Virus record (IMG/VR): IMGVR_UViG_3300035136_000041
Coordinates: 1-63,198 of that record
DNA length: 63,198 nt
Origin: a virus
Lineage: Duplodnaviria; Caudoviricetes
Direction: 5' to 3' (one strand)
The notes below the pieces were generated by a model that saw nothing but the letters and a program-made list of their open reading frames with translations, had not been told where the DNA came from and made no database searches. Positions 7,682 through 39,032 of this stretch are shown piece after piece (the first letter of the stretch is position 1; every line of letters starts with the position of its first letter). Position numbers and translations under genes: made by a program.

Positions 7682-7689
7682 GAGAAAAC

Positions 7690-9419: not shown

Positions 9420-9431
9420 GAGGAGAACATC

Positions 9432-9776: not shown

Positions 9777-9779
9777 CAC

Positions 9780-10136
9780 ATGGTAAGTGAAGCTGAACAA
9801 GCTACCGAGGAACTGCTCGAGTCTCTGAAAGAGAACGAAGCAGTAACTTTGAACGACGATGGCACTCGGACGGTCAAGCTTTCGGTACCGATCCAGATAA
9901 AGCAAGGCAAGGAGCTTGTCGATTGTGACGAGTTGACGTTCAAAGTTCCGCTTGCCAGAGACCTATTGGTTATGGATCAGGAAAAAGGTGTGATGGCGAA
10001 AAGTTTTCGGCTTGCTTGCCAATTGTGCGGCTTGAGTTATGGGAACTTCTTAAGTCTGAATGCCGAAGACTCTTTGCTGTGCGTTAGCGTCGCTCAGGTG
10101 ATGGGAAAAAAATCACGAACTGGAGGGATCTCCTAG
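9780..10136 (+). CDS. Tail assembly chaperone
   Basis: Between tube and tape measure; TVKLSVPI...ELTFKVPLARDL; slippery G GGA AAA near the end. Confidence 0.85.
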   Translation: MVSEAEQATEELLESLKENEAVTLNDDGTRTVKLSVPIQIKQGKELVDCDELTFKVPLARDLLVMDQEKGVMAKSFRLACQLCGLSYGNFLSLNAEDSLLCVSVAQVMGKKSRTGGIS

Positions 10137-10258
10137 CAAACCTAGCCTACATATTCCACTTTCAGCCAAGTGAGCTATGGAGAATGACGACTGACGAGCT
10201 CCTTTTCTGGGATGATGCCGTAGGGAGAATTTCGGATAGGTTGAAGCGTGGCAAGTGA
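10103..10258 (+). CDS. -1 frameshift extension of the tail chaperone (GpE/GT-like)
   Basis: After G GGA AAA (10103-10109) the -1 frame reads ...ITNWRDLLANLAYIFHFQPSELWRMTTDELLFWDDAVGRISDRLKRGK*. Confidence 0.8.
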   Translation, partial: GKKITNWRDLLANLAYIFHFQPSELWRMTTDELLFWDDAVGRISDRLKRGK

Positions 10259-12338
10259 TCTCAACATAAGTCTTGTCATCCGTGCTATCGACCGCGCTAC
10301 CGCACCGATGCGGAAGATCACCAACAACTTCGAAGCTATAATGCGGGCCCAGACCAGAGCGCAAAGACTGTTTGATCGGGCAGCAAGCATGCGACAAGCA
10401 GCGGCTGGTGTGGAGAGGTTCGCTCGTGGTGCTCGTGGTATTATTGCTGGTCCAATACAGAGCTACGAGGATTTCGGTCACACAATAGCTAGGGCTGGTG
10501 GACTTGCAAGAGTAAGTGGCGAGCATCTCAAAGTTCTGCATGACGAGGCTTTGAGGCTGGGCTCGACAGTTGGTGAATTTTCTGCTAAGCAGGCCGCCGA
10601 AGGGATGGCAGAGTTTGGTATTGCTGGGTATAACGTCGCAGAGATAATGGGTGCCCTACCAACGACGCTTGATCTATCGTCAGCCGCAGGAATAGAATTG
10701 TCAGAGACTGTTGGAGTTATGACGGGGATAATGGGCGCGTTCAATCTTGATGCTACCAGAGCAACAGATGTTGCTGACATACTTACAGCAACATTCACCG
10801 GGTCAAAGACCACTCTACAATCTCTTGGTGAAACAATATCGTATGCTGGTGCAAACTTCGCTGAGCTTGGTGTTGACATTAAGACGGCCGCCGCCATGGC
10901 TGGTTTGCTTGGCAATGCTTCAATAGAAGGGAGCAGAGCTGGTACTGCAATGAATGCGGTATTAGCCAGGCTGACAGCCCCACGCAGAATGGGGTTGAAA
11001 GTGATGGAGAGTATTGGTCTTGGAAGAAAAGACATAGAGGACTCTACTGGCAAGCTACGCGAACCAATGAGGATACTTGCGACGATAGCAGAACGTACTG
11101 AGAAAATGACTGCCGTTGAGAGAAAGGGGGCTCTTACTCGTTTGTTCGGCATGGAGGCGGGTCCAGCAGTTGCTGTTCTAATGGCAAAGAACGGCTCTGA
11201 GAAGATGCTTGAGCTTGCCGATGCGATCGAGAAATCAAGGGGGCGTACGACAGAGCTTGCAAACACAATGCGTGGTACTGGAAGGGGCGCAACGCAACAG
11301 CTCACCAGCGCAATCGACACATTCAAAATTGTTGTCGGTGAAACTACAGACAGCGTACTGAGGCCTCTTAAGCTTATGCTTGCAGACATAATTGGTAGAA
11401 TAACAGGATGGGCGAAAGAACATCCAAACCTAACTACAGCCATCATGATAACTGTTGGTGCAGTTGCAGCTTTAGCCAGCGTCGGGGCTGGTTTGATCTA
11501 TACCATGGTGGCCATGACGAGTGTCATGGCTGTCTCCCAATATGGTATAGGTGGATTCAAGACAGGACTGCAATTACTGCGTGCAGGACTTGAAGCTACA
11601 GCTTTGCGGATGGAAGCACTCACAGCACAGACGATGGTACTTGATTCAGAAGTTCTTCCGGCCCGTAGAGGCATAGTTGCACTCTCGCGAACGATAGTAA
11701 GATCTGCTGTGCCTGCAGCAATCGCATGGGCCGGAGCTCTCTGGCCAGTGCTTGTTGTGATTGCCGCAGTTGCCGCTGTAAGTGCAGCGGTATATTTCGC
11801 CGTCAAGTATTGGGATGAGTTGACAGCTATCTGGGAGAGGTTCAAAAACGCAAGTCTTGCAACAAAGATAGTAATTGTCGCACTGCTGGCGCCTTTCTTG
11901 GCGTTGGCTAGCCCTATACTAGCCATAGCGTTTTTGGCTAAGAAGGTCATCGATAACTGGCAACCGATAAAGGACTTCTTCTCCACTCTGTGGGATACTA
12001 TTACTGGAGGAATCAATAAAGCGATGGCAGCTCTAGAGAGTTTCGAGTTGCCAGCACCTCTACAAGCCATACTTGATTTCCATCTCAAGGTTGGCAGAGG
12101 AATAGAAAACATAGGTAAAGAGATTGGATTTGTTGCTGCCGGAGGAGCAGCAGGGGCAACAAATCTTAAGACTAGCGAATTCTTAGAACGTACTGAGGGA
12201 ACATCGAGTCTGAACAGTAATGTCAATCTCAAGATCGAGTTTGATGATCGTGGCAGACCATTCGTCCGTGGAGCCGAGGCAGATCGCGGTGTTGATCTTG
12301 AAGCAGTCTATAACGGATATGCTCTTGGTGGTGCGTGA
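10248..12338 (+). CDS. Tail tape measure protein (TP901-type core)
   Basis: IRAIDRATAPMR start, FSAKQAAEGM, GSRAGTAM, hydrophobic C-terminal repeats. Confidence 0.93.
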   Translation: MASDLNISLVIRAIDRATAPMRKITNNFEAIMRAQTRAQRLFDRAASMRQAAAGVERFARGARGIIAGPIQSYEDFGHTIARAGGLARVSGEHLKVLHDEALRLGSTVGEFSAKQAAEGMAEFGIAGYNVAEIMGALPTTLDLSSAAGIELSETVGVMTGIMGAFNLDATRATDVADILTATFTGSKTTLQSLGETISYAGANFAELGVDIKTAAAMAGLLGNASIEGSRAGTAMNAVLARLTAPRRMGLKVMESIGLGRKDIEDSTGKLREPMRILATIAERTEKMTAVERKGALTRLFGMEAGPAVAVLMAKNGSEKMLELADAIEKSRGRTTELANTMRGTGRGATQQLTSAIDTFKIVVGETTDSVLRPLKLMLADIIGRITGWAKEHPNLTTAIMITVGAVAALASVGAGLIYTMVAMTSVMAVSQYGIGGFKTGLQLLRAGLEATALRMEALTAQTMVLDSEVLPARRGIVALSRTIVRSAVPAAIAWAGALWPVLVVIAAVAAVSAAVYFAVKYWDELTAIWERFKNASLATKIVIVALLAPFLALASPILAIAFLAKKVIDNWQPIKDFFSTLWDTITGGINKAMAALESFELPAPLQAILDFHLKVGRGIENIGKEIGFVAAGGAAGATNLKTSEFLERTEGTSSLNSNVNLKIEFDDRGRPFVRGAEADRGVDLEAVYNGYALGGA

Positions 12339-13651
12339 TGGGCTGGCGAGAACGATTACAGCTTGATGGATCTGCCTCATTCCGTGGGGTAGAATTCGAG
12401 GTATCGTCGTCTGTTGGTGAATTCGGTAGGCGAACTATAATCCATAGATATCCTGGGAGGGACGACGTAGGCGCAGAAGATCTTGGTCGTCAGCCTCGCA
12501 CATTTCCTCTCGAAGCATTTGTGCTCGGCGATGACTATATGACCAAGCGCGACGAGCTCCGTGAGGCTTTCGAGACTAAGGGGCCAGGAGATCTTGTCCA
12601 TCCGTATTGGGGTAAGATTAGAGTTGTCGTAGATGGTAAAGTCAGGATAAGCGAGACGCCACGCGATGGTGGCATGGCCCGCTTGTCAATGACGATGGTG
12701 CAGATTAGTGACACGCTCTCGCCGACAGTTGAGCCAGATACACAGGCTGCGGTCGAAGAAGCATGTGATGAATTGAACACAGCTCTGGCTGAAGAATTTG
12801 ATGACAACTTTTCTGTGATAGGGTACGTGGCTGACGTGTTGACTGCCGCAGTAAATCTTGTGAATGCTGTAGCGTCTGACATCAATAGCGTCAAAGGTTA
12901 CGTCAATTCTGCCATGGCTATCGCCGACTCAATCGGGGCCGCGATAGATTCCGTTACGGATGCGATATCTGATTTGATTTTACTGCCTGGACAGTTGGCA
13001 TCTGAGTTGAAGGATGTCTTCAACGGCATCATGGATTCGATTGCGTCGATAGGTGACGCATGGAACAGCTACTTTGGAGATGATGAGACTCCTGGAACAG
13101 TTGCTGGTACACCGTCTACTTCAGCAATATCAGGTACCGTAGCAAGTGGCGATGCTAGAGTAGACTTGGCCATGAGGACATTCAGGGATCTGTCGGCGTT
13201 CGGTGATGACCTCGACGATGTGCCCACGACAACTACGCAGAGAGAACAAGAGTCAAACAACCAGACTGCATTTGTCCAATTCATCAAAGCTACGGCCACC
13301 GTGGAGGCATGCCGAGCAATTGCAGCCATGCCATTCACATCAGCTAGCAAAGCGGATGAGGTTAGAGACGAGCTGTGTGATGCCTTGGATGTCCTCGCTG
13401 ACTCATCGACTGACCTGACCTATGGGCTATTGGTAGATTTACGTGCGGCACTTGCTTTCCATCTGTCTCAGATTACGGCAGACCTACCAAGCGTGGTCGA
13501 GTATACTCCGGCCACCACGCTACCAGCGTTGGTGATCGCTCAATATCTCTATGGGGACGCAACTCGAGAGCAAGAGATTATAGATCGCAACAACGTACGC
13601 AATCCTTGTCGTGTGCCTGGCGGTGAAGTCTTGGAGGTCTTAAGCGAATGA
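12338..13651 (+). CDS. Mu gpN-like DNA circularisation protein
   Basis: ASFRGVEF, HRYPGRD...EDLGR, GPGDLVHPYWG, LPALVIAQYLYGDATREQEI. Confidence 0.93.
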   Translation: MGWRERLQLDGSASFRGVEFEVSSSVGEFGRRTIIHRYPGRDDVGAEDLGRQPRTFPLEAFVLGDDYMTKRDELREAFETKGPGDLVHPYWGKIRVVVDGKVRISETPRDGGMARLSMTMVQISDTLSPTVEPDTQAAVEEACDELNTALAEEFDDNFSVIGYVADVLTAAVNLVNAVASDINSVKGYVNSAMAIADSIGAAIDSVTDAISDLILLPGQLASELKDVFNGIMDSIASIGDAWNSYFGDDETPGTVAGTPSTSAISGTVASGDARVDLAMRTFRDLSAFGDDLDDVPTTTTQREQESNNQTAFVQFIKATATVEACRAIAAMPFTSASKADEVRDELCDALDVLADSSTDLTYGLLVDLRAALAFHLSQITADLPSVVEYTPATTLPALVIAQYLYGDATREQEIIDRNNVRNPCRVPGGEVLEVLSE

Positions 13652-14694
13652 GTGAAGGACTCCAATTGCACGTCAATGGCTGGAGGTATGGCGGTTGGCA
13701 GACTCAGCGCATCACTCGCTCGATTGAGCAGTTAGCTCACAGTTTCTCCGTGACGTTCACAGATCGCTGGGGGTCCAAAGAGGATATACCAATAGAAGCT
13801 GGTGACTCTGTATCGATATCTTATGATGATGAATGGATTACAGATGGTTGGGTAGATGAAGACACATCAGACTATAGTTACGATGAGTATACGTTGTCAT
13901 TTACTGGCCGTTCTCGCACATGTGACTTAGTCGACTGTGCCGCGATTCATCGTGGCGGGCAATGGAAGGGGCAGGGGTTGTTGAAAATAGCCAAGGACTT
14001 GTGCAACCCATTTGGCATAGAAGTCACAACGAATGTCGATCTTGGCAAGGTATTCACCCCAAAGTTTACGTTGAATGATGGTGAGTCAGTATTTCAGGCC
14101 ATCTCTAGAGCAGCAACGATGCGCGGTGTGCTCCCATTAACCAAAGCAGATGGTAATCTAATATTTGATCGTGTAGGTAGAGCAAAAGTAGCGACTAAGC
14201 TTGAATTCGGAAAGAATATTCTTCGTGGTAAATGTCGACATGATTGGCGAGAGAGATTCTCTAACTATATAGTTAAGGCGCAAACGCAAGGTACCGATAC
14301 AACATTCGGTACGTCTGCTACACAATTAAAAAGAACTGCATCTGATGAAGGATGCACAAGATACCGCCCAACTATAATACAAGCTGATAACGAGGATAGC
14401 GGATCTGAGTTACAGAAAAGGGCATATTGGGAAAGAAATGTACGGATAGGCAGAGCGAAATGGCTGACATATACCGTGCAGGGTTGGACCCACCGCGATG
14501 GGTTATGGGAGCCAAATACGTTGGTATGGGTGACTGACAAAATCGAGCGAATCGACTGTGAACTGCTTATTGTTGAAGCAACCATGACTAAAACTGAGGA
14601 TGAAGGATCTTTGACTACACTGTCTCTTACATTACCAAAAGCTTTCGATGTTCAGCCAGTACCTCCACAAGAGGAAGTTAGAGGTAGATGGTAA
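13648..14694 (+). CDS. Baseplate hub (Mu gpP/gp44-like)
   Basis: YGGW...ITRSIE, GRSRTCDLVDC, ERFSNYIV, RYRP, LWEPNTLV. Confidence 0.92.
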   Translation: MSEGLQLHVNGWRYGGWQTQRITRSIEQLAHSFSVTFTDRWGSKEDIPIEAGDSVSISYDDEWITDGWVDEDTSDYSYDEYTLSFTGRSRTCDLVDCAAIHRGGQWKGQGLLKIAKDLCNPFGIEVTTNVDLGKVFTPKFTLNDGESVFQAISRAATMRGVLPLTKADGNLIFDRVGRAKVATKLEFGKNILRGKCRHDWRERFSNYIVKAQTQGTDTTFGTSATQLKRTASDEGCTRYRPTIIQADNEDSGSELQKRAYWERNVRIGRAKWLTYTVQGWTHRDGLWEPNTLVWVTDKIERIDCELLIVEATMTKTEDEGSLTTLSLTLPKAFDVQPVPPQEEVRGRW

Positions 14695-15254
14695 TGCCAA
14701 GCTTAGCCGACACGTTAGCGAGAAGAGTTGTAGCTCCTGTGATTCGGCAGGTTAGGCTGCTCATCTCTCGTGGCGTGGTCGAGCTCGTGAACGACAGCTT
14801 GAAATGCCAGGGCCTACAGGTATCGTTGCTGGCCGATGAGTTGCGCGACAATGTCGAGCGTTTCGAAGACTATGGCATGACGTCACATCCTTTCATCGGG
14901 GCAGAGGTCCTATATCTATCGGTTGGTGGAAACCGGTCGCTTGGCGTGGCAGTACGCGTGCTAGACAGAAGATACCGACCGAAGAGCATGGGCGAGGGTG
15001 ATGTCTGCCTATTCACAGATAAGGGTGAACGAGTCTACATCGAGTCTTCTAGCGACATCGTGAACCTCGGAGCGAAGAGCGCTTCTGATTTTGTTGCCAA
15101 AGCCTCTATTGTCGACAGCCGTTTGGACGCGTTGGAGAGTTTTGCCGCGAGCCATACTCATGGTGGAGTAACTGCAGGTGCAGCATTTACCGCTACAGCT
15201 GTTGGGGCACCATCAGGATCAAGTACCGCCGCGTCGAAGGTTAAGGCAACCTGA
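14688..15254 (+). CDS. Baseplate spike (Mu gp45-like)
   Basis: ERFEDYGMTSHP, GGNRS, DRRYRP, HTH metal-binding motif (SHTHGG). Confidence 0.92.
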   Translation: MVMPSLADTLARRVVAPVIRQVRLLISRGVVELVNDSLKCQGLQVSLLADELRDNVERFEDYGMTSHPFIGAEVLYLSVGGNRSLGVAVRVLDRRYRPKSMGEGDVCLFTDKGERVYIESSSDIVNLGAKSASDFVAKASIVDSRLDALESFAASHTHGGVTAGAAFTATAVGAPSGSSTAASKVKAT

Positions 15255-15703
15255 TGCTCCAGATGATTTGGGATAACTACGGTCAGACCGTAGATCTACA
15301 GCGGGATGGCAATTTCGTTTCGAACGAGCTGCTCTATACAGCGGTCATGATTTCCTTGTTCAGCCGACGCCGAGCGAATGACGATGATGTACTTCCAACA
15401 CAGAGTCCCAACCGTGGCGGGTGGTGGGCCGATGCCTATGCTGAGGTAGATGGAGACAAGATAGGCTCCAGGTTGTGGTTACTTAACAGGTCGACGCTCA
15501 ATCAAAGCACGCTGAATCTTGCTAGAGAATATGCACTCGAGGCTTTACAATGGATGGTGGATGATGGTATAGCATCATCTGTGGATGTATCTGCGTCCAT
15601 GCTTGGACAGGAGATCCTTGTGTTGACTGTCAATATAACTAGGCCTACCAAGCCAGCCACCAAATGGTCGGGTATTTGGGAAGCCCACATGGAGCAGCTC
15701 TGA
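15254..15703 (+). CDS. Baseplate wedge protein (Mu gp46-like)
   Basis: AVMISLFSRRRA, RGGWWAD, IGSRLWLL, YALEALQWMVDDG. Confidence 0.93.
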   Translation: MLQMIWDNYGQTVDLQRDGNFVSNELLYTAVMISLFSRRRANDDDVLPTQSPNRGGWWADAYAEVDGDKIGSRLWLLNRSTLNQSTLNLAREYALEALQWMVDDGIASSVDVSASMLGQEILVLTVNITRPTKPATKWSGIWEAHMEQL

Positions 15704-16758
15704 TGCCAGTTACGCGGCCGACATTACCAACTCTGCTGGCGCGAGCTCGTAGCGATATCCAGACGCGACTTGATGGTGCTGTGGCCTCGCTGAGACGCAC
15801 GTTTGAATCTGTGATCTGCAAAGTAGTCCAGGGCGCAGCTCACGAGCTGTATGGGCATCAAGTGTGGATATCAAGGCAGATGATTCCCGATACTGCCGAA
15901 GCAGAGCTGATGTCGCGATGGGCATCCATCTTCAACATCTATCGATCATCTGCTACAAAAGCAAGTGGCACCGTGGACATTACTGGATCGAATGGTAGCA
16001 CATGTCCAGATGCCACAGAATGGCAGACAAATGATGGCACTATTTACATCCAGGACGGAGATGCAACGATTGCCGGTGGAGGGGCGACCATCACGGTCGA
16101 GGCTGAAGTAGCCGGTGCTGATGGCAATCAGGATGTAGGAGCAACGTTATCTCTCGTATCACCTGTTGCCGGCATTGACTCAGATGGCACCGTCAGCGGT
16201 AGTGGATTGACTGGCGGAATCGATGAAGAGTCTGATGCCTCCCTGTTAGCCCAGCTGCTCAGTAGATTGCGCAACCCTCCGAGTGGGGGTGGCCCTGGAG
16301 ACTACGAGAATTGGGCTCTCGAGGTGGCCGGTGTAACGAGGGCCTGGCAAATCCCCAACGGTGATGGCCTCGGCACGGTCGTCCTATACTTTGTCATGGA
16401 TGACAAGGTTGGTACCATCATCCCGGATGCTGGCGAGGTCAGTAACGTCCAGGATTACCTTGATAGCGTCGCCCCAGTGACCGCCGATGTGCATGTTTAC
16501 GCTCCAAGTGCAGTAGCTGTTGATTTCACGATATCGGTAACTCCGGACACACCTGCAATTCGTGCAGCTATTGAAGCAGAGCTTGAAGACTATATCACAA
16601 CTAATGCTACGGCAGATGGAACAGCAATATTCTATCTATCACAGCTGAACGAAAGAATCTCCTTGGCTACTGGTGAAATCGATCATACCATGACTGTTCC
16701 GGCTGTGGCTCCAACATTTGCTGTCGGCGAGATTGCGATTATGGGTACAGTGACTTGA
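15703..16758 (+). CDS. Baseplate J-like protein (Mu gp47)
   Basis: RPTLPTL, PDTAE, GGIDEESDASL, PPSGGGPGDYENWALEVAGV, APVTA. Confidence 0.93.
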   Translation: MPVTRPTLPTLLARARSDIQTRLDGAVASLRRTFESVICKVVQGAAHELYGHQVWISRQMIPDTAEAELMSRWASIFNIYRSSATKASGTVDITGSNGSTCPDATEWQTNDGTIYIQDGDATIAGGGATITVEAEVAGADGNQDVGATLSLVSPVAGIDSDGTVSGSGLTGGIDEESDASLLAQLLSRLRNPPSGGGPGDYENWALEVAGVTRAWQIPNGDGLGTVVLYFVMDDKVGTIIPDAGEVSNVQDYLDSVAPVTADVHVYAPSAVAVDFTISVTPDTPAIRAAIEAELEDYITTNATADGTAIFYLSQLNERISLATGEIDHTMTVPAVAPTFAVGEIAIMGTVT

Positions 16759-16765
16759 GGCTAAC

Positions 16766-17173
16766 ATGAGTGGACTGACAGACCTCGCTGAGCAAGCCGC
16801 CCTTGGAGTATTACTGCCAAACGGCATCGATGTGTGGATTGGCTTCTTCACAGAGCTGCCACCAACCAACGACGGTACTGGTGGCACCGAAGCTAGTGGG
16901 TCAGGATATGCCAGGAAAGAACACCAAGCATGGATCAACACAGCGTTTGGAGATATTACATACCGTGTCAACAATGGGGCGATCGAATTCGACGCGCTAA
17001 CAGCCGATCTTGAAGATATCGTTGGGTGGGGTATTTGGGACGCATTGGTAGCTGGCACATTGATTGCGTTCGGCCCAATCCTCGACGTAGCTGGGAATGA
17101 GATTACCAAAACATTCACGAACGGTAATCAACCTAGGTTTATTGATCAGGAATTGAAGATCGGGTTGGGCTGA
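16766..17173 (+). CDS. Tail/baseplate-associated structural protein
   Basis: GGTEASGSGYAR...NNGAIEF...GIWDALVAG motif common in tail clusters. Confidence 0.65.
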   Translation: MSGLTDLAEQAALGVLLPNGIDVWIGFFTELPPTNDGTGGTEASGSGYARKEHQAWINTAFGDITYRVNNGAIEFDALTADLEDIVGWGIWDALVAGTLIAFGPILDVAGNEITKTFTNGNQPRFIDQELKIGLG

Positions 17174-17174
17174 A

Positions 17175-18647
17175 ATGTTTGAAGATGTTTACGCAGACGT
17201 CTCCTCGACCATCTACGTGGCTGGCTACTACGATTCTGTCAACGACGTATACGCTCGTGTACTTCAACAGCTACTTCCTGATGGAATAATCTGGAAGTGG
17301 GCAGACGAGAGCGATGCATATAGCCTACTCAGAGCCATAGGCTACAGCTTTTGTCGCGTGGCAGAACGAGCTCAAGATCTGCTGAAAGAATTTCATCCAG
17401 ATACTATGTTAGAGATGCTCGAGGATTGGGAACGTGTCTTCGGCCTGCCTGGGGACAATCCAACTCCACCAACCACACTTGCTGCAAGGCGAGGAGCTGT
17501 ACACGCTAAGCTGCTTGGATATGGTGACCCAACAGTTTCATTCTTCGAAGCGATAGCCGCATCTCAAGGTTACACAGATGCGTATGTGAATAGGCATTTT
17601 CTGTCATCGTTTGTCCCTGGCTATGTTGCTGGAGATCCAGTTTCCTCGAAGTGGCAATATGTCTGGGAGATGGTAACCCCTAGGGGCGACGATGACACAT
17701 TGCTGCAATGGAGCTTAGGGAATGTTGCCAGAGCTCACGGTGTGATGCTGATGTTCTGGCTACTTAATCCAGAATTGCAGTCATTCGATACTCCTGGGAG
17801 CAGCGCATTTAATGCTGTAAAATACAATGGAAGTGATTTGTGGGTTGCAGTCGGAGAAGACGGTTCAATTCAGACATCTTCAGACGGTGAAACATGGGTA
17901 AAAAGGACTGCGGCCGGTGGTTATACTGGAGAATTTCATGATGTTGCATACAACGGCTCTGATCTATGGTGTATCGTAGGGGAGAATGGTGAAATACAAA
18001 CTTCTCCCGATGGGATAACCTGGACTCACAGAACAGCAGCAGCAGGAACTCCTCTGTTTAGAGCAGTTGAGCATGATCAATCTGGCTTATGGTGCGCCGT
18101 CGGCGACTCAAATATGGCGCAGACATCACCTGATGGAATTACTTGGACTGTTCACTGGCCTGTAGCCGCAGGCACACCTATACATTGGCAAGGGGTGGCG
18201 TATGGTCTTAGTGGTTGGATCATATGTGGATACTATGGAGCATCTCCTTATGATGGGAGGATACAAACTTCACCTGATGGAGTCACATGGACTGTCAGGA
18301 CTCCAGTCGGTACACCGGATCGTTTCTACGACATAAGCTTTGATGGGAGTGGCCAGTTCCTTATCGTTGGTGAGAACGGCCAGTTGCAAACGTCGGCAAA
18401 CGGAGTCGACTGGCGTAGACGAGAAGCACCCAGTGGCTCTACGATAGACCTCCTCGATGTTGTCTACGCTGGAAATAGGTGGATCGTGATTGGCGACAGT
18501 GGTGAGTTGATCGAGTCATGGTACGGTGAGGACTGGAAACGTCAAGTGTTGACAAAGACAGACGTGTATGGCATAGGCTACGGCGACGGAGTCTGTTGTC
18601 TTGTAGGTGGAACGGCAGGTGACCAAGTTTACACGGCGGAGACGTAA
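17175..18647 (+). CDS. Mu gp48-like baseplate protein fused to beta-propeller (Asp-box) repeats
   Basis: LQQLLPDG.IW, P.TM.EMLEDWERVFGLP N-terminus; repeated VGExG.IQTSPDG.TW. Confidence 0.85.
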   Translation: MFEDVYADVSSTIYVAGYYDSVNDVYARVLQQLLPDGIIWKWADESDAYSLLRAIGYSFCRVAERAQDLLKEFHPDTMLEMLEDWERVFGLPGDNPTPPTTLAARRGAVHAKLLGYGDPTVSFFEAIAASQGYTDAYVNRHFLSSFVPGYVAGDPVSSKWQYVWEMVTPRGDDDTLLQWSLGNVARAHGVMLMFWLLNPELQSFDTPGSSAFNAVKYNGSDLWVAVGEDGSIQTSSDGETWVKRTAAGGYTGEFHDVAYNGSDLWCIVGENGEIQTSPDGITWTHRTAAAGTPLFRAVEHDQSGLWCAVGDSNMAQTSPDGITWTVHWPVAAGTPIHWQGVAYGLSGWIICGYYGASPYDGRIQTSPDGVTWTVRTPVGTPDRFYDISFDGSGQFLIVGENGQLQTSANGVDWRRREAPSGSTIDLLDVVYAGNRWIVIGDSGELIESWYGEDWKRQVLTKTDVYGIGYGDGVCCLVGGTAGDQVYTAET

Positions 18648-18649
18648 TC

Positions 18650-19846
18650 ATGCACAGAGTGGATTCTAGTACACGCGCAGTAGATCTGTTTGGCCCAGGA
18701 GAGGATGGCTTCACGGAGGGCAATCCCGGAGTAACTCCTGCGACTGAGACCACCGACGACTGGTTTAATGGGGTTCAGGAGGAGATATGCAACGTCATAG
18801 AGGATTCAAATATCGCCTTAGTGAAGGGCACACGCAATCAGTTATCACGCTCTATTAGAGGAGCATTTGCCACGCTGATTCTGAACAATCAAGCCGATCA
18901 AGCCAACCCAAAAAGCTTTCGGCTTGAGGGAATAACGTGGAGTAGCAGCCTTGGTTTGTTCGTCGCTGTTGGCTCTGCGGACGGAGTTGATGCATATATC
19001 GTTACGTCACCAGACGGCACCACCTGGACAGAGCGAGCGAATCCGAAGAATTTCAAGTTGTATGATGTCGTATGGTCGTCAGATCTGGCACTATTCATAG
19101 CTGTCGGAAATTCCGACGGTGGAGATGCATATATCGTTACGTCACCAGACGGCACCACCTGGACAGAGCGAGCGAATCCGAAAAGTGTTTCACTATTCGG
19201 AGTCACGTGGTGTAGCGATCTGACTTTAGCCGTAGCCGCAGGTTCGGTTGATGGTGCGGATTCATACCTAATCACATCCCCTGATGGAATTAACTGGACA
19301 GAGCGAGTCAATCCTAAAAACGTCAGCTTATATGACGTCGTATGGTCATCTGATTTAACTCTCTTCTGCGCTGTTGGGGCTGCAGATGGGGCTGATGCCT
19401 ACGTAGTCACGTCACCTGACGGTGTCACGTGGACTGAGCGCACCAACCCAAAGAATTTCGAGCTACATGGTGTTGAATGGAGCGATGAGCTTAGTTTGTT
19501 CGTTGCGGTTGGGGAGGGTGATGGAACCGACAGTTACATTGTGACCTCGCCTGACGGGACCACTTGGACTGAGAGATCCAATCCGAAGAATTTCGATCTC
19601 AAGGATGTGATCTGGAACCCAGATCTTGATGTGCTCTTTGCGGTTGGTTTTAACGACGGTAGCGATGCGTATTGTCTCATGTCGCTGGATGCCATTACAT
19701 GGTCTGAAGTCGCTATGGCAGACGACGAGGATTTATATGCTGCGACCTGGAGCCCTGATTTAGGGGTGTTCGTTGCTGTTGGCGAGCTGGATGGGGCGGA
19801 TGCGCATATAACAAAGAGCCTTAACCTACCATTCTTTGGGAGTTGA
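18650..19846 (+). CDS. Tail fibre/receptor-binding protein: Mu gp49-like N-terminus plus about seven 45-aa propeller repeats
   Basis: MHRVD...FTEGNP..TPAT...DWFNGVQEEICNVIE; repeats YIVTSPDGxTWTERxNPKN. Confidence 0.85.
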   Translation: MHRVDSSTRAVDLFGPGEDGFTEGNPGVTPATETTDDWFNGVQEEICNVIEDSNIALVKGTRNQLSRSIRGAFATLILNNQADQANPKSFRLEGITWSSSLGLFVAVGSADGVDAYIVTSPDGTTWTERANPKNFKLYDVVWSSDLALFIAVGNSDGGDAYIVTSPDGTTWTERANPKSVSLFGVTWCSDLTLAVAAGSVDGADSYLITSPDGINWTERVNPKNVSLYDVVWSSDLTLFCAVGAADGADAYVVTSPDGVTWTERTNPKNFELHGVEWSDELSLFVAVGEGDGTDSYIVTSPDGTTWTERSNPKNFDLKDVIWNPDLDVLFAVGFNDGSDAYCLMSLDAITWSEVAMADDEDLYAATWSPDLGVFVAVGELDGADAHITKSLNLPFFGS

Positions 19847-19848
19847 GT

Positions 19849-20310
19849 ATGAAGTATCTAGTTGTAGCAATCATGATTGTGTATCCGTTGGCTACTTTGG
19901 CCGCAAACGTCCCCCTATCAGCCACTGATACTGGCATCTCAGCCGAGAATCTTTCAGACACACCGATGACAGATCCGATCCACATGGAAGGATCCGGCAA
20001 GCAAAGCAATCAGCTTTCGATCACGTGGGCGGTAACGCCAGGTTCGTCAACGCGAATTCAAGTCACATGCTGGACATCAAATCTGAAGACTAGCGGGTAT
20101 GGACAACGTGGATTCTGCGATAACGCCTCGCCATCCAACTGCCATCCTGACGTGCGCGAATTTACACTATCTGAGTATACTACCGTGTCTGGAAAGAAAT
20201 GGATCAAGACAGAGTGGGAGATCACGGAGGAGTGGGCGAAGTGCTCTGCTGACGATCCTGATGATGGCACTGGCACTGTCACTGCTACAGGGACGAGGAG
20301 TGAGCGATGA
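19849..20310 (+). CDS. Predicted exported protein with signal peptide
   Basis: MKYLVVAIMIVYPLATLA N-terminus; four Cys. Confidence 0.65.
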   Translation: MKYLVVAIMIVYPLATLAANVPLSATDTGISAENLSDTPMTDPIHMEGSGKQSNQLSITWAVTPGSSTRIQVTCWTSNLKTSGYGQRGFCDNASPSNCHPDVREFTLSEYTTVSGKKWIKTEWEITEEWAKCSADDPDDGTGTVTATGTRSER

Positions 20311-30721: not shown

Positions 30722-31801
30722 CTATGATTTGCTGACCTTGATTCGTGGCTTGGTGACCTTCTCCACGGCTCCGACTTCGCAAAGCCGCTCCAGTGTTTCC
30801 CTCATGTAAGCCGCCGCTTTGCCTTTGGGAGCTCTTCCTTTCAGGACTTCCTGCAACCCTGATTTAGTAATCTTGAGAGCGATATTAACCTCATCCTTGG
30901 TGAGTTTCAACTCTTCTCTGAGGATGCGCATGGCTTTTGACGGCCTGATATAGTCTTGTTCCTGTTGGTCGATCGTAATCTCTCTACCGTCTGAGGTCAC
31001 AACCGGCCCGCTGGCGATCATGGATTTGAGGACCTTATCATAATGCCGCAATGCTCTTCCTATAACACGCGAACGATCGTATAGGTCAGCAATGACTGTT
31101 GGTGTGATTGACGACTCATCATCGATTGCCTCCAAAGCCGTGATACCTGAGCGAGTCCACTCGTCCTTGGCTCGACAATTCATCTGTCTGGGACAGTACC
31201 GGCAGGCATCATAGCTCGGACCATACCGATTGGGGTCGGCCACTTGAGCGAGTAATTCATCGCGTAGCCTGTCGAGGTCTTCGTCGCGGAACTTGTGAAT
31301 GCGAACCTCGCCTATTCGTACCCAGACTTCGGCCCCTAGGATGTAACCACGATCTGGCATACCATGCATATCGCGTAGCAAATAGGCATAGCTGCGAATC
31401 TGATTTGGATGCTCTGATGGACTCCAACCGAACTTCCAGTCGAGCACCGCATGTCCTGCTACACTGACAAGATCTGATGTTCCTCGTAGAGTGACTTCGT
31501 CAGATAAATCAGCAGCCATATGGCATTCGCACTCAGCTTTTGGATACCACTTTGAAAGCCATTCCCAAGCCTCTTTAGCGCGCCTAGCCATACCGACAAG
31601 CACGTCTGGATCAACACCGTAGATGTCAGCCGCTTGGTCTATGGTGGCCCCAAATCCGGTTATTAACCGAGGCATGCACGCATGGCCAGCAGTGCCCTCG
31701 ATTGCTTCTGGATCGTTTGGCGAATACGGCGCGTCTGTTGGGATGAGACTTCCAGCACAGTGAAGTGCACGATCTGTCGAGCTGGATCTGACCGTTGTCA
31801 T
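30722..31801 (-). CDS. PD-(D/E)XK nuclease (DUF2800/Cas4-like exonuclease)
   Basis: SS..RALHC, AIEGTAGH, LRGTSD, VLDWKFG, QIRSYA, CRYCP...C. Confidence 0.82.
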   Translation of the reverse strand: MTTVRSSSTDRALHCAGSLIPTDAPYSPNDPEAIEGTAGHACMPRLITGFGATIDQAADIYGVDPDVLVGMARRAKEAWEWLSKWYPKAECECHMAADLSDEVTLRGTSDLVSVAGHAVLDWKFGWSPSEHPNQIRSYAYLLRDMHGMPDRGYILGAEVWVRIGEVRIHKFRDEDLDRLRDELLAQVADPNRYGPSYDACRYCPRQMNCRAKDEWTRSGITALEAIDDESSITPTVIADLYDRSRVIGRALRHYDKVLKSMIASGPVVTSDGREITIDQQEQDYIRPSKAMRILREELKLTKDEVNIALKITKSGLQEVLKGRAPKGKAAAYMRETLERLCEVGAVEKVTKPRIKVSKS

Positions 31802-32817
31802 GACGCGTCACCTTTCTTGCTCAGCGCTCTCCACGCTTTCCAAAGCCTACGGATCGCTTCCTTTTCCATACGTCGCTTTGCTCTGTTATGTGCATGTGCC
31901 TTCGTCATCTTTTCATTTCTCTCAAGCTCGTAAGCTTTCCGCGCATCATATATACGTCGGAATTCACCAGCATCTTCGCCCTTCCCCTGACCCTTTATCA
32001 GGCAATCACCAAGCGTCCACACAGCCGACCTCCTGGTTGGAGAGTACCCCATTTCAATCGCCAGCTCTTTATCCAATGTTTTGCACTGCCGCTTCCCCTT
32101 AATGACTGCCAATCCGAGTCGCTTCCAGACTTTAGCAGGATTCGCATACAGAGACAAGTCTCCTGTCTCACCAATGATGCATGCCAAATTTGTGTGCCCG
32201 AACCCTTTCACGGTGTCGACCCACGAGCAGACGGGGAGCTTGGCGGCAAGTTTTGTCATGTCGGCACGCAATCGTTTCTCGGAGCGGTTGATTGTATCGC
32301 GAGCTTGGAACATTGGCTTGCACCAGAGATAGGCCTTGGCAGCAACGGCGTGATGGTTAACACTGTTCTCATGGCCGCCAAGGCCTTCCTGGTTGGCGGC
32401 AACCGCGGAATGGTTAACATTGAGCTCCTGGCCGCCAGGATCCTTATGGATCGCACAGAGCTCTCTATACAGATCGTCTGCGCGTTTCAATCCGGCTTTG
32501 TCATTCTTGCCTTTGACATCGACAAATCGCCGACAAACGGCTTTGACGCGATTGGTAAGTGCGACCTGTATTCTTACGAGATCATTGCGTTGAGCCTTTA
32601 GCTCGCGCAACGTTTCACAGATAGATCCGAGCCCGTCGGCAACTACGGAATGGGCAACACTGCTCGTATGACCAACGGGCTCGGAAAGGTTTTCTGGTTG
32701 AGACATGGCTCGGCTGGTTTGCACTTCCTCAACGGTCTCGCCAGAATCTAGATTGTTTTGAGCAGACATGCTCTGCATGGTGTTCACCGTGTGCTTGGTC
32801 TTACTCAAAGCTTTCAT
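31798..32817 (-). CDS. Nop-domain/IS110-related RNA-binding protein without nuclease domain (TasA-like)
   Basis: AGGAG before ATG; coiled coil LRELKAQRNDLVR..LTNR; WVDTVKGFGHTNLACIIGETGDL..YANPAKVWKRLGL; YDARKAYE...KAHAHNRAKRRMEK; no DEDD RuvC, no catalytic Ser motif; adjacent and embedded guide-like array. Confidence 0.82.
   Translation of the reverse strand: MKALSKTKHTVNTMQSMSAQNNLDSGETVEEVQTSRAMSQPENLSEPVGHTSSVAHSVVADGLGSICETLRELKAQRNDLVRIQVALTNRVKAVCRRFVDVKGKNDKAGLKRADDLYRELCAIHKDPGGQELNVNHSAVAANQEGLGGHENSVNHHAVAAKAYLWCKPMFQARDTINRSEKRLRADMTKLAAKLPVCSWVDTVKGFGHTNLACIIGETGDLSLYANPAKVWKRLGLAVIKGKRQCKTLDKELAIEMGYSPTRRSAVWTLGDCLIKGQGKGEDAGEFRRIYDARKAYELERNEKMTKAHAHNRAKRRMEKEAIRRLWKAWRALSKKGDAS
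32331..32810 (-). ncRNA. TIGR-like stem-loop guide units embedded in the Tas CDS (5 units: 32331-32386, 32387-32440, 32626-32685, 32692-32746, 32756-32810)
   Basis: Each is stem + CCA/TCA/CCG + 9 nt + TGNNNNCCA + 9 nt + TG + complementary stem on the minus strand. Confidence 0.8.
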
Positions 32818-32837
32818 CTTTTTCTCCTAGGCTGAGG

Positions 32838-33135
32838 TTCTAGTGAGACATCATTGACATGGGTAACATTGATCTATAGGTCTCACCAGAAGCCCATTCA
32901 TCATACCACGAAGTTTTGGTGATTGCAATCTCCTAATGGGCATCACGTCAAGTTTGGCAATCACCAATTCATCAACCACCTGGTTCAACAACAGAACATC
33001 GGCGGGCATCACGACTGTGTTGGTCGTCGAGCCAGGCGGCAATCCTTCCTTGGTTTACACTGCCTTACTGACCGCCTAGCTCGACTGACTAATGCACCGC
33101 TACTGTGGGTTACATTCCCCGAGTGGCATTAGTCA
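32838..33135 (-). ncRNA. TIGR-like stem-loop array upstream of Tas (5 units: 32838-32891, 32916-32967, 32979-33036, 33026-33085, 33086-33135)
   Basis: Same 32-nt core; loops TGTTACCCA, TGATGCCCA, TGATGCCCG, TGTAAACCA, TGTAACCCA; 9-14 bp closing stems with G-U pairs favouring the minus strand. Confidence 0.85.
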
Positions 33136-33632
33136 CATCTTGCCTCTTTCTTAAGGCGTTTTAAATCACCCTCCGTGAATACTGCACCAACTACTTTATT
33201 GTCCGGCATCTTATCTGCAATCAACGTGAGCCACTTCGCTCGTCGTCTTTTGCTGTCTGCAATACGGTTGTATAATGCAGCCGTAGCTACAACGTCACCC
33301 TTCATTGCGTGACCTAGTGGCAATCCATCGAGCAATCGAAAACCCATCAGCGAGTCAGCGGCGAATCGAAGTCGCGCCCCACATTGATCTTGTGCAGGTT
33401 CCGATTGGCGAACAGGTTTAGATGATTTCCCAGTTGGGGGGGTGGCAAAGTTCTCGATAGCCAGCTGGCATGCCTGCCTAAGGAACGGCTCGGTCAACAT
33501 CCGCCAGAGCAATTTGTCTTTGCGAGCTTCACTCTCGAGCCGATCAACGGCGTCTTGTTTAGTCTTGGTCCTCTTGATCGCAGTCGATATGTAACGCCGC
33601 AGATAGACTTCGTTCGCATCGTCTGTCGCCAT
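33129..33632 (-). CDS. Hypothetical protein heading the TIGR-Tas operon
   Basis: AGGAG before ATG 33632; its stop codon lies in the stem of the first guide unit. Confidence 0.7.
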   Translation of the reverse strand: MATDDANEVYLRRYISTAIKRTKTKQDAVDRLESEARKDKLLWRMLTEPFLRQACQLAIENFATPPTGKSSKPVRQSEPAQDQCGARLRFAADSLMGFRLLDGLPLGHAMKGDVVATAALYNRIADSKRRRAKWLTLIADKMPDNKVVGAVFTEGDLKRLKKEARCD

Positions 33633-33781
33633 GATCGCTCCTGAGCTGTAAAACTGCATGACTGGTGATCGCCGCTAGTAGCACCCAAGATCACCAGTCA
33701 GGCAGACCTACTGCCATTGGAATACGATGTACACTACAACTCCATTTTGGCTCCTCTCGTCTTTTTAAGTTTGTTTCATGC

Positions 33782-33810
33782 ACTGTGACCTACCGCTCGC
33801 GAGATGTCAA
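33782..33810 (-). promoter_or_regulatory. Leftward promoter for the TIGR/recombination operon
   Basis: TTGACA-N17-CACAGT on the minus strand. Confidence 0.5.
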
Positions 33811-33904
33811 GCACAAAATCTCTGTGTGAGGATTTCGTCTCGTAACATTTATATAGACGCTCACACTAGGCCGATCTACGCTCGCATCTTTTTTTTCAGG
33901 ACGC

Positions 33905-33934
33905 TTGACAAGCAGATTCGCATGTGTCTAAATA
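33905..33934 (+). promoter_or_regulatory. Rightward promoter for the XRE/ParB/helicase operon
   Basis: TTGACA-N18-TAAATA. Confidence 0.5.
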
Positions 33935-33953: not shown

Positions 33954-34178
33954 ATGAGTCTCGAAGATATGGGCGAGACAGTTAGGGTTGTCCGAATTAT
34001 GAAGGACATCTCAATCAGGGAAATAGCTCGCCGAGCAGAAACAAATCCCAACACAATCCTTAATCTCGAGAGCACCGGAGCAGTGACACTCAAGACGCTG
34101 CTCAAGGTGGCGAAGGCTCTGAAAATTAAGGCAAGCGACCTCACTCGCATCGCGGAGAAAAATCATGGAAAAGCGTAA
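33954..34178 (+). CDS. XRE-family HTH regulator
   Basis: ISIREIARRAETNPNTILNLES...TLKTLLKVAKAL; AGGAGG before ATG. Confidence 0.88.
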   Translation: MSLEDMGETVRVVRIMKDISIREIARRAETNPNTILNLESTGAVTLKTLLKVAKALKIKASDLTRIAEKNHGKA

Positions 34179-35145
34179 GACGGCAATTGTCAACCCGAAG
34201 GATCTTATTCCTCCAAAGGGGCATGTGCTCAATGCTGATGTTGTAGATTCGATTGCCGAGTCGATCAGCAAGGTTGGACTTCTACAACCGATTGCCATAG
34301 TTGGACGTCACATCAAGTATGGTGTCCATCGTTGGGCTGCGGTGATGAAGCTCGGATACGAGGAGATAGAAGTGATTCGGGACAGAAAAGTTGAGACTGA
34401 CGACGAGCACGATGCGCAAGTTATCGTCGAGAATCTCTGTCGGCATCACTACAAGGGTCAAAAACTGGATGACATGCGCAAGCGGCTCGTAGATCTCTGG
34501 GAGCCTCAAATCGCCCAGGAGATGAAGATTTCGCAAAAAGACACAAATATTGCCAAACCACAAGATGATACCGGTGATGGGCAAAAACGATCGCCAGGGA
34601 GAAAAAAGACAGCCCGCGGCAAAGCCATCAAACAAGTAGCAAAACAAACTGGCACCACCGAGGGTGCCGTCAAAGAATCAGTGAGACGGGCAAAGGCCGC
34701 CGAAGCCGGCGTCACCCCCAAGCAGCCAGACGATCCACCACCGTTAGATGAGCCGGAGGTCACCGTCGACGACTACGGCACCGAGATCCCCGAGGGCGAG
34801 GTCGGCAGGTGGAACGAAGCTCGACAGCTGCTCGACGAGCTCGACAGCATCATGCGTGGAGTACAAATCAAGCTCGGCGAACTCGTCAAGATCAAGGGGA
34901 TGCCCTACTCGGTGGTGAGCGATCTCGACAAGCGTGCACAGCAATTCGCTGAGCTCGCTCAGAAGTACCATCCGGTGGCTCTATGCCTCGAGTGCAGCGG
35001 TACGGGCAAGAACCCAAACAACACCAACGGGTGCACTCATTGTGTGGGAGTCGGCTTCATCGCTGAGGTTAACTACAAAGCTCAGACGAAGCCAGCCACC
35101 GTCGAGGAGGAACCAACCTTCACCGAAGACGACCTGGACTGGTAG
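34165..35145 (+). CDS. ParB/Srx-like protein with C-terminal Zn finger
   Basis: IAESISKVGLLQPI...GVHRWAA...VENLCR; CLECSGTG...CTHCVGVG. Confidence 0.8.
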   Translation: MEKRKTAIVNPKDLIPPKGHVLNADVVDSIAESISKVGLLQPIAIVGRHIKYGVHRWAAVMKLGYEEIEVIRDRKVETDDEHDAQVIVENLCRHHYKGQKLDDMRKRLVDLWEPQIAQEMKISQKDTNIAKPQDDTGDGQKRSPGRKKTARGKAIKQVAKQTGTTEGAVKESVRRAKAAEAGVTPKQPDDPPPLDEPEVTVDDYGTEIPEGEVGRWNEARQLLDELDSIMRGVQIKLGELVKIKGMPYSVVSDLDKRAQQFAELAQKYHPVALCLECSGTGKNPNNTNGCTHCVGVGFIAEVNYKAQTKPATVEEEPTFTEDDLDW

Positions 35146-37838: not shown

Positions 37839-39032
37839 ATGGCCCTGAAGTTCCATTCCGCAGCCGATCTTTTCCCGTTGATGAGCGACGCCGATATCGA
37901 CAAGCTTGCCGAGGACATTCGAGAGCATGGACTCGTCGAGCCAATCGTCGTGCACAGAGACGATGGCTCGATCCTCGATGGGCGGAATCGCTATCTGGCC
38001 TGCAAGAAAGCGAAGGTGAAGCCAGATACTGAGCAATGGGATGGCCCCGCCGGCTCAGAAGTCACCTACGTTATCTCTCGCAATCTCCACCGACGCCACC
38101 TCAACGAGAGCCAGCGAGCCATGATCGCAGCCCGAGTCAAGTCGATGTTTGAGGCGGAGGCAAAGAAGCGGCAACTAGCCACACTGAAGCGGGGAAAAGA
38201 AGCACCAGCCCCCGTTAAGGAAAATTTACCTGAACGGGACAAGGGTCAGTCTCGAGATCACGCCGGCGAGATGTTCAAGGTCTCTGGGCGCTCGGTCGAC
38301 CACGCCGCAAAAATTCTTAAGAACGCGAGCCCGGAGCTCGTGCAGGCTGTAGACGATGGGACAGCTACGCTCGCTCAAGCCACCAAGCTCATGGGACAGG
38401 ATCACGACACCCAACGCAAGGTCATCTCACGAGCACGGGAGACCGGCAAGACTGCAACGGAAGCATACAGGGTCGTCAAGGCTGAGCACATTGCAAAGGC
38501 AGAGATGACAAAGCCAAGTGGCAAATACCGAGTCATCCTTGCTGACCCACCATGGTCCTACGGCAACAGCATGCCGCCCGGTACCACAGAGCCTCGCGAT
38601 CATTATCCGACGATGAGCCTTGAGGATATTTGCGCATTGCCAGTCAAAGACATGGCTCAAGACGATGCGGTGCTTTTTCTTTGGGTGACCTCCCCCCTTG
38701 TCCCGGAATCCATGCAAGTGATTGAGGCGTGGGGGTTCAAGTACAAAGCAAGCTTCGTTTGGGATAAAGTCAAGCACAACATGGGGCATTACAACTCAGT
38801 CCGCCACGAATTCTTGTGGATCTGCGTCAGAGGAAGCTGCCAACCAGACGTGCGAAAGCTATTTGATTCGGTGGTCGTCGAGGAGCGCACCGAGCATAGC
38901 AAAAAGCCAGAGCAATTCTACGAGATCATCGACACGCTCTATCCACAAGGCAAGCGCATAGAGCTCTTCGCTCGCGCAGCGCGAAAGGGTTGGCAACGGT
39001 GGGGATTTGAAGCGGGAGAATCAGATGCGTGA
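37839..39032 (+). CDS. ParB-like N-terminal domain fused to MT-A70 adenine methyltransferase
   Basis: HSAADLFPLM...GLVEPI...ILDGRNR...NLHRRHLNESQRA; VILADPPW, HYPTM, LFLWVT, WGFKYK, HSKKP, ELFAR. Confidence 0.92.
   Translation: MALKFHSAADLFPLMSDADIDKLAEDIREHGLVEPIVVHRDDGSILDGRNRYLACKKAKVKPDTEQWDGPAGSEVTYVISRNLHRRHLNESQRAMIAARVKSMFEAEAKKRQLATLKRGKEAPAPVKENLPERDKGQSRDHAGEMFKVSGRSVDHAAKILKNASPELVQAVDDGTATLAQATKLMGQDHDTQRKVISRARETGKTATEAYRVVKAEHIAKAEMTKPSGKYRVILADPPWSYGNSMPPGTTEPRDHYPTMSLEDICALPVKDMAQDDAVLFLWVTSPLVPESMQVIEAWGFKYKASFVWDKVKHNMGHYNSVRHEFLWICVRGSCQPDVRKLFDSVVVEERTEHSKKPEQFYEIIDTLYPQGKRIELFARAARKGWQRWGFEAGESDA

Follow-up and report, generated by a model that had tools for sequence, protein, structure and literature searches.

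The 63,198-base virus record IMGVR_UViG_3300035136_000041 of IMG/VR, which has a completeness estimate of 88% and is called the window below over its whole length, carries on its minus strand the gene of a Tas protein, tasA, together with ten hairpin units and a conserved upstream open reading frame (ORF), orf176. Systems of the TIGR-Tas type are compact, bind DNA under the guidance of RNA and require no protospacer-adjacent motif; to our knowledge, their natural targets, the maturation of their guides and the origin of their spacers are all unknown. The minus strand shows the order orf176, five hairpin units, tasA, a PD-(D/E)XK exonuclease gene and genes for a RecT-like annealing protein and an SbcC-like ATPase, and the stretch from orf176 through the array to tasA is part of a leftward early operon. 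With a probability of about 85%, the locus is a stem-loop TIGR-TasA system that a tailed phage carries in this operon, an RNA-guided DNA binder that would not cut. It is composed of the following features.

31798..32817, minus strand: tasA, 339-amino-acid (aa) nuclease-less Tas protein, assigned from PDB sequence matches, model and Foldseek
33129..33659, minus strand: orf176, conserved ORF of 176 aa, candidate partner of the TasA clade, with a same-strand homolog beside tas in relatives
33086..33135, minus strand: tigRNA unit 1, core 33095-33126; 10-nucleotide (nt) arms, 100% complementary, the 5' arm overlapping the orf176 stop codon
33026..33085, minus strand: tigRNA unit 2, core 33040-33071; 14-nt arms, 93%
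32976..33039, minus strand: tigRNA unit 3, core 32992-33023; 7 uninterrupted pairs including G-U
32916..32967, minus strand: tigRNA unit 4, core 32926-32957; 11-nt arms, 100%
32833..32896, minus strand: tigRNA unit 5, core 32849-32880; 17-nt arms, 82%; last unit ahead of the tasA start codon
32756..32809, minus strand: tigRNA unit 6, core 32767-32798; tasA codons ~4-20; 3 uninterrupted pairs
32692..32747, minus strand: tigRNA unit 7, core 32704-32735; tasA codons ~26-41; 4 uninterrupted pairs
32626..32685, minus strand: tigRNA unit 8, core 32640-32671; tasA codons ~45-64; 14-nt arms, 93%
32393..32438, minus strand: tigRNA unit 9, core 32400-32431; tasA codons ~127-142, coiled-coil tip; part of a 57-nt duplicate
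32331..32386, minus strand: tigRNA unit 10, core 32343-32374; tasA codons ~145-163; 13-nt arms, 92%

The TasA Protein

The reading frame of tasA starts with the ATG at 32817, preceded by AGGAG 6 nt upstream. In a phmmer search against PDB sequences, residues 176-332 of the protein match residues 150-296 of TaTasR (9mty_A) with an E value of 5.2e-9. With a profile of 31 homologs, the E value for the same chain falls to 1.5e-20, and the TasH entries (21kl, 9w04 and others) are matched at 8e-7. The AlphaFold model (mean predicted local distance difference test score, pLDDT, of 83.4) is disordered over residues 1-60. The coiled coil then follows, with long helices at 63-125 and at 152-191 and a disordered tip between them (126-151), and a Nop-type helical C-terminal domain spans 197-338. 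The preliminary description of this DNA had proposed a Nop-domain protein of the TIGR-Tas type, to be checked with AlphaFold and Foldseek. This check agrees with the proposal: the ten best matches to the model are TasR or TasH chains, followed by the IS110-type recombinases ISCro4 and IS621 and then by Prp31 and Nop5. For 9mty_A, the E value is 1.9e-5 and the root mean square deviation is 2.5 over 168 columns. Faure et al. 2025 (PMC12045711) place the Tas proteins in the same structural neighbourhood.

Pfam contains no nuclease family that matches TasA at E values of up to 1, and the matches to TasR and TasH begin past the nuclease domains of these enzymes. Since no folded N-terminal part precedes the coiled coil and no nuclease family is found, the protein is assigned to the TasA subtype, and its earlier characterization as nuclease-less stands. 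TaTasR (PDB 9MTY) and SpTasH (PDB 9W04) share with it a homologous core of Nop domain and coiled coil, dual-spacer guides and an aromatic-basic pair. In contrast to TasA, they contain a RuvC or HNH domain, and their guides carry conserved edge repeats instead of unit-specific stems. The aromatic-basic pair is described by Guan 2026 (bioRxiv 10.64898/2026.08.11.744272) in helix alpha4 at the DNA unwinding junction, as Y238/K233 in TaTasR and F252/R260 in PlTasA. In the HMMER alignment, W267 of the phage protein aligns with TaTasR Y238, and R262 is invariant and R263 near-invariant in the 31 homologs; judged from this alignment, W267 beside R262/R263 fits the pair. The C-terminal Y/H processing loop of TaTasR and SpTasH is also absent. 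The chain ends directly past its last helix, which fits the missing loop of the stem-loop clades (Xu 2026, bioRxiv 10.64898/2026.09.09.750476).

The gene could also be read as a decayed IS110-family transposase, with the hairpins as bridge RNA remnants or unrelated palindromes. Such a reading draws on a sub-threshold Pfam match to Transposase_20 (15.4 versus 21.3 bits, E value of 0.024), on PHROG 4285, named 'transposase', at 1.5e-14 and on one homolog that a source has labelled IS110 family transposase. The IS110/IS621 bridge-RNA recombinases (PDB 8WT6, 9T56) do possess a related RNA-binding domain and guide loops that pair with both DNA strands. However, catalytic recombinase domains are absent from TasA: neither Pfam nor the model contains a DEDD/RuvC-like domain, and the N terminus consists of 60 disordered residues. 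The locus is not a transposon and holds an array of ten guides instead of a single bridge RNA, Tas structures outscore IS621/ISCro4 in Foldseek (6e-6 versus 9e-3), and the unit architecture is kept in 107 of 134 related loci. A transposase origin of this kind is highly improbable. Similarities are also found to the box C/D small ribonucleoprotein (Nop5, fibrillarin, L7Ae), which has the Nop fold and bipartite guides bounded by box C/D-like nucleotides. Here, in contrast, the fold match to Nop5 is weak (Foldseek E value of 0.75), no fibrillarin or L7Ae is found among the neighbouring genes scanned, and the published target of Tas proteins is DNA, not RNA.

Guide Units of the Array

A pattern for the 32-nt core matches 13 times in the window, with 12 of the matches on the minus strand within 784 nt (32343-33126). 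One hundred dinucleotide-preserving shuffles give a mean of 2.22 and a maximum of 8 matches, and none of them reaches 13. Ten of the 12 matches are the units listed in the preliminary description, which proves exact for the cores as well as for all twenty spacers. The two surplus matches (32361-32392 and 32418-32449) are overlaps offset by 18 nt that arise from the 5' sides of the stems in units 9 and 10. The anatomy of the unit is stem, CCA, 9 nt, TG, 4 nt, CCA, 9 nt, TG, stem. In unit 3, the second-half box C is CCG, and the outer 5' arm and the 3' arm of unit 2 have sequence in common.

The inverted repeats abut the cores, pairing begins right at the core ends, and in minimum-energy folds a stem closes every one of the ten cores. 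Counted outward from the core, the uninterrupted pairs of units 1 to 10 number 9, 14, 7, 10, 11, 3, 4, 14, 6 and 12. Over the first seven positions, the pairing of a unit's own arms amounts to 0.8-1.0, compared to 0.33-0.73 when the two arms come from different units. Over ten positions from the core, the stems of all units together contain 78 Watson-Crick, 8 G-U, 5 A-C and 9 other pairs. The statement that most stem mismatches become G-U pairs on the minus strand is therefore only partly right: it applies to 8 of the 22 non-Watson-Crick pairs, and the 5 A-C pairs would be G-U on the opposite strand. The strand is assigned far better by the asymmetric boxes and by the relatives than by G-U pairs.

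Five of the ten units (6-10) are located inside the tasA frame, units 6-8 in the disordered N-terminal tail and units 9 and 10 at the coiled-coil tip, with unit 10 extending from the tip into the beginning of the second helix. The intragenic units coincide with regions that are disordered in the AlphaFold model. The preliminary description is silent on the position of units 6-10 within the frame at 31798-32817 and on the conserved upstream ORF.

The stem-loop tigRNA described by Faure 2025 (PMC12045711) and Xu 2026 has palindromic arms where edge repeats would otherwise stand, together with a 9-nt loop, box C/D nucleotides and a pair of 9-nt spacers. According to Xu 2026, intragenic units cause no frame break and usually occupy disordered regions, and processed intragenic guides are shown for BlTasA. 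PlTasA (from a Peromyscus leucopus gut contig; Faure 2025; Guan 2026), BlTasA and MbTasA (both Xu 2026) are the closest counterparts in design: each is a nuclease-less protein with coiled coil and Nop domain in a phage setting, with hairpin units of two 9-nt spacers, box C/D nucleotides, a 9-nt central loop and variable palindromic arms, placed both upstream of and within the tas frame in disordered protein regions. Differences are found in detail. The intragenic guide of BlTasA lies in a wedge loop, whereas those described here lie in the N-terminal tail and the coiled-coil tip. For PateTasR, a TasR with a stem-loop array, CUU/UG is described, in contrast to the CCA in both halves that forms box C here. 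Stem-loop arrays, TasA and intragenic guides are thus all already in print; among the matches listed from Table S1 of Faure et al., as far as that table is accessible, proteins of the clade are present and the exact protein is not.

An Rfam scan gives no match at E values of up to 1. A lone unit-like hairpin at 12063-12094 on the minus strand, antisense in the tape-measure gene, has 9 of 10 box positions and a 7-pair stem. No other such match lies outside the array, which is 20 kb away, and a region homologous to it is lacking in the sibling record; either an orphan guide or chance may account for this hairpin.

Conservation in Related Loci

A protein search yields 219 homologs among 1914 candidates, and the set of loci comprises 80 viral loci, kept from 179, and 54 genome loci. 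Among the genome loci, contigs of Alphaproteobacteria prevail, joined by some from Gamma- and Betaproteobacteria and by a few from other phyla. Near the gene (190,751 bases), the 80 viral loci contain 191 matches to the strict pattern on the gene strand versus 8 on the opposite strand, compared to 21 versus 10 farther away (293,374 bases). With an additional stem of at least 5 pairs, these counts become 148 and 1 near the gene and 2 and 0 farther away, and 51 of the 80 loci contain at least one such unit.

A strand-neutral and motif-free census of perfect Watson-Crick hairpins with loop sizes of 26-40 leads to the same architecture in the 134 loci. Loops of 30, 32 and 34 nt are found 507, 475 and 460 times, respectively, versus 107-153 for the odd sizes. 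The loop consensus is CCA-N9-TG-N4-CCA-N9-TG, with the columns C82 C82 A68, nine variable positions, T46 G84, four weakly biased positions, C85 C83 A62, nine variable positions and T53 G82. A relaxed detector identifies 608 units on the gene strand versus 16 on the opposite strand, with at least one unit in 107 and at least three in 89 of the 134 loci. The proposed stem-loop type of TIGR locus is supported by this shared consensus as well as by the agreement of the unit with the published tigRNA. Searches for further relatives show two distant ones of TasA in a phage collection, in Rhizobium phage RHph_X2_25 and Microcystis phage Mvi-JY20, and a metagenome scan for close relatives returns one distant locus only.

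Guide Turnover in a Sibling Phage

The closest fetched relative, L001, is a co-linear sibling phage whose TasA is ~75% identical (71% in the best tblastn segment). It contains six strict units compared to the ten of the window. Identities between the two over the aligned units 6, 8, 9 and 10 are as follows.

Boxes, window versus L001: 39/40 identical
Stems, window versus L001: 62/77 identical
Non-unit coding sequence, window versus L001: 170/221 identical
Spacers, window versus L001: 28/72 identical
4-nt loop centre, window versus L001: 5/16 identical

The fast turnover of the spacers against fixed boxes is guide-like evolution. The orthologous unit 6 is present in L001, the stem pairing of unit 8 is kept there through changes on both arms, and unit 7 is missing in an in-frame gap of 72 nt. 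None of the 20 spacers of the window recurs among 150 units of relatives.

Units 9 and 10 (32331-32449) form an in-frame tandem duplicate of 57 nt with 75% identity, in which 11 of 18 spacer positions are still common; the insert that holds them is absent from more distant homologs. This pair suggests an origin of guides by duplication with subsequent divergence. In the duplicate, the 5' stem arms themselves fit CCA-N9-TG, which gives it a three-box look.

The source habitat of the phage is a wetland. In contigs from another wetland sample, the array is identical to that of the window over 32706-33287, with units 1-6, 8 and 10 unchanged. A low-depth variant contig of run X1, whose sample is probably the source of the record, differs at 20 of 151 positions between 32302 and 32452, across units 9 and 10, with many of the differences in spacers. 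The record of the sibling phage, G406 (L137-L139), is co-linear with the window but circularly permuted; it begins and ends inside the PD-(D/E)XK gene and shows no match to window bases 1-20000.

The Upstream Gene orf176

A tblastn search with the neighbours of tasA in 135 related loci finds orf176 in 31, the helicase in 5 and neither RecT nor the ATPase in any; 1 locus each is found for PD-(D/E)XK, for the regulator and for the ParB-like gene. When all six-frame ORFs of at least 60 aa in these loci are searched with an iterated profile, the orf176 homologs extend to 117 of the 135, one per locus, all on the gene strand and all but one upstream of tas. In a control with the six remaining neighbours as queries, this search arrives at 0, 0, 1, 18, 4 and 3 loci. 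About half of the 18 loci that lack an orf176 match are truncated upstream, and where 2200 nt or more precede the conserved WKR motif, the homolog is present in 104 of 110 loci. The distance from the orf176 stop codon to this motif has a median of 708 nt. In each of five whole bacterial genomes, the sole orf176 match is the copy adjoining tas. In 401 sampled genomes of one class, the orf176 profile matches 40, mostly with the N-terminal half only, and the Tas profile matches 5; one genome is common to both, and 39 are orf176-positive without a tasA match. These N-terminal matches in genomes without a tasA match indicate that the N-terminal domain of orf176 is not exclusive to TIGR loci.

The family has a mean identity of 23% and lengths of ~170-200 aa. 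The model of the phage protein shows two helical domains and is almost all helical (pLDDT of 84.3), and the conserved positions are mostly hydrophobic, with one glycine and one arginine. No match is found in Pfam (46 family members), PHROGs or the ESM Atlas. The best values are an E of 0.18 in a profile search of the PDB, an E of 0.03 in a fold search of BFVD and a Z of 5.5 in VIA-align against 48,161 chains, the latter for generic helices. A word-indexed search gives 9 relatives, none of them with a name. ParB_N is found in 0 of 46 members in Pfam, and no ParB appears in the PDB profile or fold searches, which a very distant kinship could escape.

According to Faure et al. 2025 (PMC12045711), TasA lacks clear protein associations, and the neighbour clustering of that study was made at 50% identity, a threshold that would miss a family averaging 23%. 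In the accessible portions of the TIGR-Tas literature, no partner gene of TasA is found other than tasParB, literature searches bring up no other, and no conserved upstream gene is found reported for the published stem-loop TasA, in contrast to orf176, which accompanies the clade. The tasParB-tasA operons of Faure et al. likewise hold a second gene in the tasA operon, with the array sometimes between the genes, but the published case concerns dual-repeat arrays, whereas orf176 shows no ParB signal in Pfam or in the PDB profile search and has an almost all-helical model. On the literature as far as it is accessible, the linkage of orf176 is the one lead beyond what was found in print, and orf176 may be an unreported partner of TasA.

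This linkage leads to a second reading, in which TasA alone is incomplete and the orf176 product would act as a guide maturation factor or as an effector or adaptor at the bound site. The presence of the homolog on the same strand beside tas in 117 of 135 loci (104 of the 110 whose upstream DNA extends over 2200 nt or more), compared to 0-18 loci for the six control neighbours, its occurrence as a single copy, adjoining tas, in all five whole bacterial genomes, the spread of the loci over Alpha-, Beta- and Gammaproteobacteria and a few other phyla and the overlap of the first guide's stem with the orf176 stop codon all argue for such a role, and auxiliary factors for the processing of stem-loop guides are left open by Xu 2026 (bioRxiv 10.64898/2026.09.09.750476). 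Against it, PlTasA, BlTasA and MbTasA are reported to bind processed guides or DNA in Escherichia coli with no second phage protein mentioned in the accessible reports, the N-terminal half of orf176 also matches 39 of 401 sampled genomes without a tasA match, and the protein has no conserved polar residues suggestive of an enzyme. A fused orf176-Tas protein is likewise found neither among 120 Tas homologs nor among longer proteins, the latter being weak evidence. A two-protein system is a serious possibility that falls somewhat short of an even chance. Its most specific form, in which an orf176-type protein would be obligate in the clade, either for the maturation of the hairpins, which Tas proteins of this clade cannot cut on their own, or for the downstream effect, and new guides would arise in place by in-frame duplication of units in tasA followed by spacer divergence, is put forward tentatively and with the odds against it.

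Targets and Points against a Guide Function

In the window's own genome, with both orders of the halves and up to 4 mismatches allowed, the ten guides have 2 matches at 3 mismatches and 10 at 4, compared to 0.95 and 10.0 for shuffled spacers. The guides of relatives (143 distinct spacer pairs) show none in the window with up to 2 mismatches and 18 with 3. The window guides have no match with up to 3 mismatches in the sibling record G406 (55,195 bases, 65% complete), and the sibling guides have one match with 3 mismatches in the window. The IS621 bridge-RNA rule provides the order with spacer A first for scans of IMG/VR. Exact 18-nt scans with units 1 and 4 in this order (2 of 20 patterns, host genomes not being scanned) give 0 and 1 match, respectively. 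The single match is probably due to chance: it lies in a 1272-aa ORF of an unrelated phage with 41% G+C, in which no other guide matches within 2 mismatches.

The position of the locus in an early operon, beside a Cro/CI-type regulator and a divergent promoter region, would suit a lifecycle switch that regulates the phage's own genes and not host or rival DNA, and viral lifecycle regulation is among the possible roles named by Xu 2026. As no 18-bp site in the window, an 88% complete record, beats chance for the ten guides in either order, such a switch is improbable and self-regulation is an unlikely role. The targets probably lie in the host or in rival mobile elements.

Several observations weigh against the interpretation as a working stem-loop TIGR-TasA system. 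No target above chance is found in the phage, the sibling or the two IMG/VR scans. RNA runs holding the stretch were looked for and none is listed. A promoter scan finds 1 site versus 2.1 expected and favours no particular start. The stems of units 6 and 7 are weak and bulged, with 3 and 4 uninterrupted pairs, compared to the other eight, which are solid. The earlier claim that each unit is closed by its own stem accordingly holds firmly for these eight and less firmly for units 6 and 7, in which decay or poor use may be under way. The CUU that Xu 2026 reports at stem bases is also lacking at the 5' base here. In 333 distinct units of the clade, CTT at the 5' stem base occurs at 0-2% per position, equal to the background, while past the 3' stem base it occurs in 13% of units at 2-4 nt, with a maximum of 6.6% at 4 nt and a background of ~1% per position. 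The clade thus shows no 5' enrichment and only a mild 3' enrichment. According to Xu 2026, CUU at the stem bases marks the processing site and is a frequent feature, not the definition of the family.

Proposed Mechanism

The stem-loop TIGR-TasA system remains the preferred reading. The anatomy of the units, the homology and predicted fold of the protein, the conservation of the architecture and the turnover of the spacers support it directly. Transcription would probably start from the divergent intergenic region (33660-33923) and proceed through orf176, the array and tasA, and the ten hairpin units would be released from the operon transcript. Each unit would expose its two spacers of 9 nt in a 32-nt loop on a unit-specific stem, with CCA (box C) ahead of each spacer and UG (box D) after it. 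A TasA dimer joined by the coiled coil would bind one hairpin RNA through its Nop-type domains. In the target DNA, spacer A would then base-pair with one strand, and spacer B with the neighbouring 9 nt on the opposite strand, so that an 18-bp site would be bound sequence-specifically without cleavage and transcription or another DNA transaction would be blocked.

The processing of the units, the binding of RNA, the rule of two-strand pairing and the repression are transferred in this scheme from published work on other TasA proteins. MbTasA blocks transcription without cutting (Xu 2026). RNA-guided DNA binding without cleavage would hold for the phage TasA by analogy, because it is shown for MbTasA (Xu 2026) and PlTasA (Guan 2026).

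Phage Record and Gene Neighbourhood

The window encodes a tail sheath, a tape measure, a baseplate hub, a portal, a large terminase and a head protease. Together, these genes indicate a contractile-tailed phage. The G+C content is 52%, and no tRNA genes are found in the window. In a phage collection, bases 1-25000 have no near DNA match, and a terminator scan of the locus is uninformative.

Beyond the 264-nt divergent gap (33660-33923) lie genes for a Cro/CI-type regulator, a ParB-like protein and a helicase. On the other side of tasA, its stop codon is shared with the start of the PD-(D/E)XK exonuclease gene in an ATGA at 31798-31801. This coupling is not kept, with a gap of ~190 nt in the sibling and no PD-(D/E)XK neighbour in any other relative, and looks local for this reason. 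In the related loci, neither PD-(D/E)XK nor RecT, the SbcC-like ATPase or the ParB-like gene is a conserved neighbour of tas. Two ParB-like genes are found near the locus on the plus strand, at 34165-35145 and at 37839-39032, the latter fused to a DNA methyltransferase-like region. Both are outside the tasA operon and are not conserved neighbours; the gene at 34165-35145, on the strand opposite to tasA, is common to the sibling phage only. Both are probably unrelated to the published tasParB.

Implications

The locus is a clean example of its type in a nearly complete phage genome, with ten guides, five of which lie within the frame of their own effector, and the sibling phage shows spacer turnover while boxes and stems persist. 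The gene pair orf176-tasA is the more useful lead of the finding. Should the guides mature, or act at the target, only with the help of orf176, this would answer a question left open in print, and the requirement would matter for the use of stem-loop Tas proteins as tools.

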